Assembly (NCBI RefSeq): GCF_003334315.1
Contig: NZ_QOWR01000011.1
Source: Escherichia coli
GTDB lineage: Bacteria > Pseudomonadota > Gammaproteobacteria > Enterobacterales > Enterobacteriaceae
Reading direction: 5' to 3' (one strand)
Length of the DNA: 64,000 nt
The notes under the pieces are model-generated. The model was not told the origin of the DNA. It saw nothing but the letters and a program-made list of their open reading frames with translations, and did not search any database. The first letter of the stretch is position 1, and every line of letters starts with the position of its first letter. This document shows positions 32,040-56,625 of this stretch, in pieces. Made by a program: the position numbers and the translations under genes.

Positions 32040-32160
32040 GGCGCTAACCATGCGAGCGTGCCTGATGCGCTACGCTTATCAGGCCTACGAAAATCTTGCA
32101 ATGTATTGAATTTTCATGATTTTGTAGGCCGGATAAGGCGTTCACGCCGCATCCGGCAAG
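32040..32160. repeat. Tandem REP/BIME-like palindromic units downstream of gyrB
   Basis: gcctgatgcgctacgcttatcaggcctac and ggccggataaggcgttcacgccgcatccggc, REP consensus in opposite orientations. Confidence 0.65.
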
Positions 32161-42015: not shown

Positions 42016-42188
42016 AATAAATTCATCTGTTGATCGTGGGTGTTGGCCTGATGAGTTATAGCGATCCCTTGCTGAAAATAACATCATCATTACGTCGCTC
42101 TGTGGCGGCAATCGCACTTTAACGTTTCGTGCTGCCCCCTCAGTCTATGCAATAGACCATAAACTGCAAAAAAAAGTCCGCTGATAAG

Positions 42189-42218
42189 GCTTGAAAAGTT
42201 CATTTCCAGACCCATTTT
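42189..42218 (+). promoter_or_regulatory. sigma32 (heat-shock) promoter of ibpAB
   Basis: CTTGAAA (42189-42195), 14-bp spacer, CCCATTTT (42210-42217); matches sigma32 consensus CTTGAAA-N13-15-CCCCATNT. Confidence 0.75.
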
Positions 42219-42320
42219 TACATCGTAGCCGATGAGGACGCGCCTGATGGGTGTTCTGGCTACCTGACCTGTCCATTGTGGAAGGTCTTACATTCTCGCT
42301 GATTTCAGGAGCTATTGATT

Positions 42321-42734
42321 ATGCGTAACTTTGATTTATCCCCGCTTTACCGTTCTGCTATTGGATTTGACCGTTTGTTTAACCACTTAGAAAACAACCA
42401 GAGCCAGAGTAATGGCGGCTACCCTCCGTATAACGTTGAACTGGTAGACGAAAACCATTACCGCATTGCTATCGCTGTGGCTGGTTTTGCTGAGAGCGAA
42501 CTGGAAATTACCGCCCAGGATAATCTGCTGGTGGTGAAAGGTGCTCACGCCGACGAACAAAAAGAGCGCACCTATCTGTACCAGGGCATCGCTGAACGCA
42601 ACTTTGAACGCAAATTCCAGTTAGCTGAGAACATTCATGTTCGTGGGGCTAACCTGGTAAATGGTTTGCTGTATATCGATCTCGAACGCGTGATTCCGGA
42701 AGCGAAAAAACCGCGCCGTATCGAAATCAACTAA
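42321..42734 (+). CDS. ibpA: Small heat-shock protein IbpA (alpha-crystallin family)
   Basis: 137 aa [24 protein letters not shown]...; alpha-crystallin domain. Confidence 0.93.
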
Positions 42735-42845
42735 TTCCCTAAGGCCGCCTGGCGCGGCCTGACATCTCCATGCTCGCCGTCAGGGAGCATATGCGAATCT
42801 TCGGATTTGCAGGTACTTACTCGCTTCTTAGAAGGAGAAATGACT

Positions 42846-43274
42846 ATGCGTAACTTCGATTTATCCCCACTGATGCGTCAATGGATCGGTTTTGACAAAC
42901 TGGCCAACGCACTGCAAAACGCCGGTGAAAGCCAGAGCTTCCCGCCGTACAACATTGAGAAAAGCGACGATAACCACTACCGCATTACCCTTGCGCTGGC
43001 AGGTTTCCGTCAGGAAGATTTAGAGATTCAACTGGAAGGTACGCGCCTGAGCGTAAAAGGCACGCCGGAGCAGCCAAAAGAAGAGAAAAAATGGCTGCAT
43101 CAAGGGCTTATGAATCAGCCATTTAGCCTGAGCTTTACGCTGGCTGAAAATATGGAAGTCTCTGGCGCAACCTTCGTAAACGGTTTACTGCATATTGATT
43201 TAATTCGTAATGAGCCTGAACCCATCGCAGCGCAGCGTATCGCTATCAGCGAACGTCCCGCGTTAAATAGCTAA
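42846..43274 (+). CDS. ibpB: Small heat-shock protein IbpB
   Basis: 142 aa from ATG 42846 ([24 protein letters not shown]...); paralog of ibpA; good SD (aggag) upstream. Confidence 0.92.
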
Positions 43275-43288
43275 CTAGCTATTCTCTT

Positions 43289-43316
43289 TGCCCCGCCATT
43301 CTGGTGGGGCTTTTTT
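43289..43316 (+). terminator. Rho-independent terminator of ibpAB
   Basis: gccccgccattctggtggggcttttttt. Confidence 0.8.
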
Positions 43317-56444: not shown

Positions 56445-56550
56445 ATATTTGGACAAAACGCAAACTGTGATCGATACTCAACTATGCACTAAATACGTCA
56501 AAATTCGTGCCGAAATTGCGCGTTCTGCGCGGAACACGTATACTTTCAGT

Positions 56551-56625
56551 GTTGACATAATACAGTGTGCTTTGCGGTTACCAGCCGCAGGCGACTGACG
56601 AAACCTCGCTCCGGCGGGGTTTTTT
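56551..56625 (+). ncRNA. istR: IstR-1 antitoxin sRNA (about 75 nt); the longer SOS-induced IstR-2 would start upstream near the LexA box
   Basis: TATACT -10 at 56539-56544; 5' segment gttgacataatacagtgtgct complementary to tisAB mRNA (plus-strand 56293-56313); ends in GC hairpin plus U-run (56600-56625). Confidence 0.65.

Follow-up and report, generated by a model that had tools for sequence, protein, structure and literature searches.

The region around ibpA and ibpB very probably carries the native, layered control of the Escherichia coli ibpAB operon, consisting of a sigma32 promoter, two leaders that mask the SD sequences as RNA thermometers, and the published layers of RNase E processing and IbpA autorepression. 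The analysis covered a stretch of 64,000 nucleotides, referred to here as the window. The computations made here established the control elements and how rare they are, the assignment of the ibpA leader to an Rfam family, the conserved and covarying hairpins, and the relation of both leaders as paralogues.

Genomic context of ibpAB

The 64-kb window is a part of the E. coli chromosome. The 1.6 kb around ibpAB showed 100% identity to many complete E. coli genomes, and the ibpAB locus was found in 5420 of the 5426 complete E. coli genomes. The RefSeq annotation places the genes in the order yidR, yidQ (minus strand), a 'ROSE' feature, ibpA, ibpB and yidE. The features discussed below are collected in Table 1. 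The coordinates given in the original prediction, an earlier reading of the same DNA, were accurate to within one base (end of the ibpA stop codon at 42734, ibpB start at 42846, spacer of 111 nt). An alternative ATG for ibpB is present at 42840, 2 nt past the SD sequence.

Table 1. Positions of genes, control elements and RNA hairpins at the ibpAB locus, numbered along the window.
Feature	Position	Strand	Remarks
sigma32 -35 element CTTGAAA	42190..42196	+	direct sequence reading; only match in the window
sigma32 -10 element CCCATTTT	42211..42218	+	14 nt past CTTGAAA
Predicted transcription start	42223..42227 (~42225)	+	~7 nt past the -10 element; from promoter geometry and the 5' edge of conserved hairpin I
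ibpA hairpin I	42225..42263	+	-18.5 kcal/mol at 37 °C (MFE); invariant GCC-N4-GGG apex
ROSE_2 match	42255..42327	+	model positions 1-73, full length
ibpA hairpin II	42266..42287	+	-9.0 kcal/mol at 37 °C; within the ROSE_2 match
ibpA hairpin III (ROSE hairpin)	42291..42317	+	-4.6 kcal/mol at 37 °C; weakest of the three
ibpA CDS	42321..42734	+	137 aa; RefSeq
sigma54-like -24/-12 match TGGTAAATGGTTTGCT	42655..42670	+	inside ibpA; 2 mismatches to TGGCAC-N5-TTGCW; function doubtful
ibpA-ibpB spacer	42735..42845		111 nt
ibpB hairpin 1	42742..42760	+	GC-rich, directly past the ibpA stop, no U tract; -13.9 kcal/mol
ibpB hairpin 2, GCUCGCC-GUCA-GGGAGC	42770..42790	+	-10.9 kcal/mol
ibpB hairpin 3, variable module	42792..42811	+	-9.2 kcal/mol
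ibpB hairpin 4, CUCGCUUCUUAGAAGGAG	42820..42837	+	-5.4 kcal/mol; MFE structure at 25-42 °C
ibpB CDS	42846..43274	+	RefSeq start 42846
Operon intrinsic terminator	43290..43310	+	9-bp stem, 7 G-C pairs, then TTTTTTT

The sigma32 promoter of ibpA

The promoter was analyzed with the sigma32 consensus CTTGAAA, N13-15, CCCCATNT. The pattern CTTGAAA-N13-15-CCCATNT was present at a single place in the 64 kb; from 100 shuffles, 0 occurrences were expected. In a graded sigma32 scan of both strands of the 64 kb the top-scoring site was CTTGAAA-N13-ACCCATTT, which agreed with the consensus at 13 of 14 positions, a score that was reached by 0 sites in the shuffled sequences. The -10 element is read here in an alternative register, with ACCCATTT at 42210-42217 matching 6 of the 7 specified positions of CCCCATNT.

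Conservation was assessed on the ibpA loci of 80 further species of Enterobacteriaceae, which provided 79 distinct upstream sequences. The -35 heptamer was nearly invariant across the 80 aligned upstream regions and the -10 element was kept as CCCATTTT, CCACATTTT or CCCTATTTT; the promoter spacer and the flanks varied freely. The original prediction had placed a near-consensus sigma32 promoter about 100 nt upstream of ibpA, and the scans bear this out with the top site of the window, a unique pattern and conservation in about 80 species. The distance from the end of the -10 element to the ibpA ATG is 103 nt. As hairpin I of the leader starts 7 nt after the -10 element, transcription probably starts at about 42225, which would give the ibpA leader a length of ∼96 nt. 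In the literature ibpAB is described as controlled by sigma32 (PMC8155344; PMC4316790) and counts among the recognized members of its regulon (PMC8155344); for the sigma32 control these two papers cite Allen 1992 and Chuang and Blattner 1993.

The ibpA leader is a ROSE element

The ibpA leader, from about 42225 to 42320, folds into three hairpins. The Rfam model ROSE_2 (RF01832; gathering score 65) matched it with 100.4 bits and E = 3e-23, and the same ROSE feature is part of the existing RefSeq annotation 5' of ibpA. In the ROSE hairpin (hairpin III) the SD sequence AGGAG (42307-42311) lies opposite UCGCU (42296-42300), with a bulged G at 42298 according to the ROSE_2 structure line, and CUC-G-CUG pairs with CAG-GAG. 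The segment that sequesters the SD, 42295-42311, reads CUCGCUGAUUUCAGGAG.

The three-hairpin structure was compared across 79 distinct leaders, in which 85.9% of the alignment cells were paired, as against 35-53% when the 3' partners were slid. In total 18 of the 32 pairs were compensatory, and the observed covariation was reached by 0 of 500 shuffles. Compensatory changes were seen at 7 of 9 pairs in the inner helix of hairpin I and at 3 of 9 in hairpin II, and each of the two had 94% of cells paired. Hairpin III had the same sequence throughout the 79 species, with 99.8% of cells paired; as it never varies, its support comes from sequence conservation and not from covariation. MAFFT gave a poor alignment of the outer stem of hairpin I (39-55% of cells paired), which probably reflects indels and not a missing stem.

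The folding z-score of the ibpA leader was -1.79, which is weak taken alone, and in some sequence contexts the MFE structure was an alternative one that replaces the ROSE hairpin. The z-score of the ibpB leader, -1.42, is likewise weak taken alone. Owing to these weak z-scores, the support for the structures is taken from the Rfam model and the covariation.

The leader was further compared with the definition of ROSE elements in PMC3669281. It contains the U(U/C)GCU motif, an imperfect pairing with the SD sequence and a 3'-proximal hairpin of this type, and it has three hairpins, within the allowed two to four, 5' of a small heat-shock gene. Every sequence and structural feature used to test membership of the ROSE family is present in the ibpA leader.

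The ibpB leader

The spacer between ibpA and ibpB folds into four hairpins, of which three covary. In hairpin 1, 4 of the 6 pairs were compensatory and 93% of cells paired; the corresponding values for hairpin 2 were 3 of 8 pairs and 96%. All eight pairs of hairpin 3 were compensatory, and this hairpin was missing in about 19 species. Hairpin 4 was invariant in sequence and 100% paired in 78 species. It places the ibpB SD sequence AGGAG (42833-42837) opposite UCGCU (42821-42825) with a bulged G, the same motif as in ibpA. Over the whole set of ibpB spacers (n = 78), 94.5% of cells were paired, compared to 42-52% in the slid controls, and 15 of 29 pairs were compensatory. Since neither hairpin III of ibpA nor hairpin 4 of ibpB ever varies, covariation speaks neither for nor against the SD hairpins. 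In each leader the SD hairpin is the weakest, with -4.6 and -5.4 kcal/mol for ibpA and ibpB, respectively, compared to -9 to -18.5 kcal/mol for the other hairpins.

With 15.2 bits and E = 9 the ibpB leader scored below the ROSE_2 gathering score of 65, and none of the other Rfam ROSE models matched it. The U(U/C)GCU motif, the imperfect SD pairing and the 3'-proximal hairpin that characterize ROSE elements were nevertheless all found in it. We class the ibpB leader as a ROSE-like thermometer that the present Rfam model does not cover. The original prediction of structured leaders that occlude the SD of both ibpA and ibpB is supported by the ROSE_2 score of the ibpA leader, by covariation in both leaders and by the presence of an SD hairpin in each.

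A small upstream open reading frame with a regulatory role, starting in the spacer, was considered and rejected. It has an SD-like GGGAG (42783-42787) and an ATG at 42791 and spans 20 codons to its end at 42853; only 46 of the 81 sequences had the ATG, and neither the length nor the frame was conserved.

Paralogy of the two leaders

A covariance model, R1, was built from the 79 ibpA leaders. R1 matched the ibpB leader at 42757-42854 over the full model length with 29.5 bits (E ∼8e-6), a part of this score coming from the first codons common to both genes, AUGCGUAA. It also matched 75 of the 80 ibpB leaders of other species and had no further match in 267 kb. In the alignment to R1, hairpins 2 and 4 of ibpB correspond to the apex of hairpin I and to hairpin III of ibpA, respectively. 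These matches indicate, at the level of sequence, that across the Enterobacteriaceae the leader of ibpB is a duplicated and since diverged form of that of ibpA, and that the two leaders are collinear. This agrees with a report that ibpB arose in Enterobacterales through a single gene duplication (bioRxiv 10.1101/2020.04.20.050740). The sequence and structure of the ibpB leader have been described as 'not identical' to those of the ibpA leader (PMC10410725); the R1 alignment shows the two to be collinear nevertheless.

The GCC-N4-GGG apex was invariant both in ibpA hairpin I (42225-42263) and in ibpB hairpin 2 (42770-42790), and the lower stem covaried freely. As the apex is constrained though unnecessary for masking the SD, it is a candidate for the determinant by which IbpA oligomers recognize both mRNAs, an assignment that we consider quite improbable at present. 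If true, the apex would be a concrete, mutable target for the choice of mRNA by IbpA, a protein without a known RNA-binding motif.

Response of the leaders to temperature

The accessibility of the SD sequences was calculated from folding at 25 to 50 °C, and the shifts were small. For the ibpA leader including 30 nt of coding sequence, the mean unpaired probability of the SD was 0.11 at 30 °C and 0.20 at 42 °C, and for the leader without coding sequence it was 0.45 and 0.34, respectively; the direction of the shift thus depends on the coding sequence included. The values for ibpB were 0.02 at 30 °C and 0.07 at 42 °C. The isolated hairpins were predicted to melt only at temperatures far beyond the physiological range. 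ROSE hairpins rely on non-canonical pairs, which are not part of the energy model, and for this reason folding in silico was rejected as a decisive test of thermosensing.

The comparison of folds at 30 and 42 °C that had been proposed as a check of the original prediction therefore has a divided outcome. The SD is sequestered in the predicted folds, so that the structure whose absence was to count against the prediction is present. The opening with temperature is small and depends on context, and it neither refutes nor proves thermosensing. In view of the small shifts in silico, the claim of thermosensing rests on published experiments. Placed behind a temperature-independent promoter, the ibpA leader gave ∼4-fold induction from 25 to 42 °C (PMC3669281). 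Both leaders are described as RNA thermometers on the basis of structure probing and reporter assays, as far as PMC10410725 and bioRxiv 10.1101/2020.04.20.050740 recount this work. The thermometer papers themselves are Waldminghaus 2009 and Gaubig 2011, as cited in PMC3669281, PMC10410725 and bioRxiv 10.1101/2020.04.20.050740.

Proposed model of ibpAB control

In the model that we favor, RNA polymerase with sigma32 (RpoH) would use CTTGAAA-N14-CCCATTTT to transcribe ibpA and ibpB as one bicistronic RNA that begins at about 42225. The leader of ibpA, ∼96 nt in length, would act as a ROSE-like RNA thermometer in which two stable 5' hairpins are followed by a weak third one that masks the SD. Access of ribosomes to ibpA would be low in the cold and would rise as hairpin III opens. 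The 111-nt spacer would be a diverged copy of the ibpA leader design with an added GC-rich hairpin past the ibpA stop, and its last hairpin would mask the SD of ibpB. According to published work the transcript would also be cut by RNase E; Gaubig 2011 reportedly described the processing of the ibpAB transcript into monocistronic RNAs. Oligomers of IbpA, again following published work, would bind both leaders and hold translation down until IbpA is drawn off by protein aggregates; repression of both the ibpA and the ibpB leader by IbpA has been reported (PMC10410725; bioRxiv 10.1101/2020.04.20.050740; PMC10474464). The sigma32 dependence, exact start, thermal melting, RNase E processing and IbpA binding in this model are taken from the literature or inferred.

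Alternative explanations

An internal sigma54 promoter in or near the spacer, from which ibpB would be transcribed independently of ibpA, is very unlikely. Such a promoter upstream of ibpB is still cited (PMC4316790), the claim being attributed to Kuczynska-Wisnik et al. 2001, and the original prediction had likewise allowed for an additional promoter in the spacer and suggested a scan for -24/-12 elements. That scan came out negative for the spacer, as no GG-N10-GC (-24/-12) arrangement occurs in 42735-42845. The spacer also lacks sigma70-like sites, and sigma32-like sites in it reach at most 8 of 14 positions; within 42600-42846 the highest such score, 9 of 14, belongs to a site inside ibpA. 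The nearest sigma54-like site, TGGTAAATGGTTTGCT, is located inside ibpA as well, 176 nt upstream of ibpB. With its two mismatches and as the only GG-N10-GC in 42560-42846 it is an argument for such a promoter. However, about 20 sites as good as TGGTAAATGGTTTGCT are found on both strands of the 64 kb, which corresponds to a chance expectation of ∼7% for this stretch. The site also falls to 3-4 mismatches in most other species, and its GG and GC persist because the conserved LVNGLL peptide uses the preferred Leu codon CTG, so that their conservation is explained by codon usage. A scan with the sigma54 consensus at ≤3 mismatches was uninformative, yielding 300 matches in the window compared to 333 expected. 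Finally, genome-wide sigma54 ChIP-seq gave no more than background signal at ibpB, and the promoter was called 'not a genuine sigma54 promoter' and 'misannotated' (PMC4591121). The extra promoter of the original prediction is accordingly not supported.

Two further readings concern the role of the hairpins, and we consider each of them possible but rather doubtful as the main explanation. The hairpins might serve mainly as an operator for IbpA autorepression, by which aggregates are sensed, with direct melting of the SD hairpins being secondary. IbpA represses reporters carrying the ibpA and ibpB leaders, mutations in stem-loops 1 and 2 that leave the SD untouched weaken the repression, and induction occurs at 30-37 °C once aggregates build up (bioRxiv 10.1101/2020.04.20.050740; PMC10410725; PMC10474464). 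The SD hairpins also hardly opened in silico from 30 to 42 °C, and the GCC-N4-GGG apex is invariant in both leaders though masking of the SD does not need it. Against this, the ibpA leader alone responded ∼4-fold between 25 and 42 °C from a promoter that is independent of temperature (PMC3669281), and the two mechanisms have been described as cooperating and not as alternatives (bioRxiv 10.1101/2020.04.20.050740). The other reading assigns hairpins 1 to 3 of the spacer mainly to processing and stability of the mRNA and less to the translational control of ibpB, where a 3' protective hairpin and RNase E sites would set the IbpA:IbpB ratio. Hairpin 1 is GC-rich, lies directly past the ibpA stop and covaries, and we infer that it could act as a 3' protective hairpin for the processed ibpA mRNA. 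The reported processing by RNase E into monocistronic RNAs fits with this role, as does the 3- to 10-fold higher abundance of IbpA over IbpB (PMC10410725). Hairpin 4, however, clearly masks the SD, and about 19 species do without hairpin 3. A role in processing would complement the layered control by promoter and thermometer leaders and would not replace it.

Significance

The sigma32 control, the thermometers of ibpA and ibpB, the RNase E processing and the IbpA autorepression are already published, and these known control elements of ibpAB could be located accurately from the sequence alone. The idea of an internal sigma54 promoter, which is repeated in reviews, finds no support in the spacer sequence and little in ibpA, in agreement with the negative ChIP-seq. 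The lead that goes beyond the literature consulted here is the collinearity of the paralogous leaders with their invariant GCC-N4-GGG apex; its bearing on the recognition of mRNA by IbpA is speculative. The shared apex could guide mutagenesis of the interaction between IbpA and mRNA.

Comparison with known systems

Compared to other sigma32 (RpoH) promoters, the ibpA promoter has an exact -35 element, a -10 element that matches 6 of the 7 specified positions and a spacing within the range, without a notable difference. The ibpA leader is the same element as the known ROSE-like thermometer of E. coli ibpA (RF01832; Waldminghaus et al. 2005 and 2009), and no difference was found between them. 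The ROSE1 element of Bradyrhizobium (hspA) and the ROSE-like element of Pseudomonas ibpA likewise have a U(U/C)GCU anti-SD in a 3' hairpin with imperfect pairing at a small heat-shock gene (PMC3669281). The thermometers of Pseudomonas are short and have two hairpins, whereas the E. coli ibpAB leaders have three to four, and the sequences of the upstream hairpins in Bradyrhizobium ROSE1 and Pseudomonas are unrelated to those of ibpAB. The ibpB leader corresponds to the locus of the E. coli ibpB thermometer of Gaubig et al. 2011, as far as that work is described where it is cited (PMC10410725; bioRxiv 10.1101/2020.04.20.050740). It differs from the ibpA leader in having four hairpins instead of three, and in being an internal leader of a polycistronic RNA, whereas the ibpA leader is a 5' UTR.

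Relationship of the ibpA and ibpB leaders

A covariance model built from ibpA leaders alone matched the ibpB leader over its full length, with a score of 29.5 bits. The same model matched 75 of the 80 ibpB leaders from other Enterobacteriaceae, and in the loci searched from these other species it returned no further matches beyond the ibpB leaders. The ibpB leader is a duplicated ibpA leader that has since diverged. Hairpin I of the ibpA leader and hairpin 2 of the ibpB leader carry the same apex, which is invariant across ∼80 species; the lower stems of both hairpins covary and their loop letters are variable. The apex represents a constraint at the sequence level that is unexplained by masking of the Shine-Dalgarno sequence.

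The ibpB leader also contains an SD-like GGGAG with an ATG 3 nt downstream, which opens a 20-codon ORF ending just within ibpB. A conserved upstream ORF was considered here and rejected, as the ATG was found in only 46 of the 81 species and the frame and length of the ORF vary. Most likely, the ATG is left over from the start of the duplicated ibpA (AUGCGA versus AUGCGU). The ibpB gene itself has two in-frame ATGs, and the SD spacing is workable only for the second (8 nt), which RefSeq annotates as the start. The second ibpB codon of Escherichia albertii (locus L002) is CCT (Pro), not CGT (Arg).

Hairpins 1 and 3 of the ibpA-ibpB spacer

Hairpin 1 of the ibpB leader is a GC-rich stem of 7 bp that starts 7 nt past the ibpA stop codon and is not followed by a U tract. 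It is conserved across species with compensatory changes and absent from a few of them (e.g., loci L025, L032, and L034). This hairpin may protect the 3' end of a processed monocistronic ibpA mRNA, or may attenuate read-through. Hairpin 3 is deleted in ∼19 species of the Citrobacter freundii group and Kluyvera (loci L005, L006, L010, L012, L014, L015, L017-L019, L024, L026, L054-L056, L072, and others), and in other species insertions of 20-130 nt occur between hairpins 3 and 4 (L007, L008, L031, L048, L053; Enterobacter and Lelliottia group). In its middle part, the spacer is a variable module.

Positions of leader elements, neighboring motifs and other RNA genes
Feature	Position	Strand	Motif or score
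A-rich run	42166-42175		CAAAAAAAAG
ibpA leader	42223-42329		
ibpA hairpin I apex	42243-42252		GCC-N4-GGG
Sigma54-like site	42655-42670		TGGTAAATGGTTTGCT
ibpB hairpin 1	42742-42760		
ibpB leader	42757-42854		
ibpB hairpin 2 apex	42775-42785		GCC-N4-GGG
SD-like motif	42783-42787		GGGAG
Region of 20-codon ORF	42783-42853		
ATG of 20-codon ORF	42791		
ibpB hairpin 3	42792-42811		
ibpB ATG, first	42840		
ibpB ATG, second	42846		
AsdA, antisense RNA of dnaA	26524-26604	-	Rfam, 101.9 bits
ES036/CssrF sRNA	32081-32123	-	Rfam, 44.8 bits
istR sRNA	56496-56625	+	Rfam, 150.1 bits

Other elements in the window

Three additional Rfam matches over threshold were found in the 64-kb window, which contains no tRNA genes. 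The A-rich run, in the divergent yidQ-ibpA intergenic region, precedes the -35 element by ∼15-25 nt and may be UP-element-like. The sigma54-like site falls within the ibpA coding sequence, and codon usage accounts for the conservation of this site. The sigma54 promoter of ibpB reported in 2001, which is disputed, possibly refers to it.
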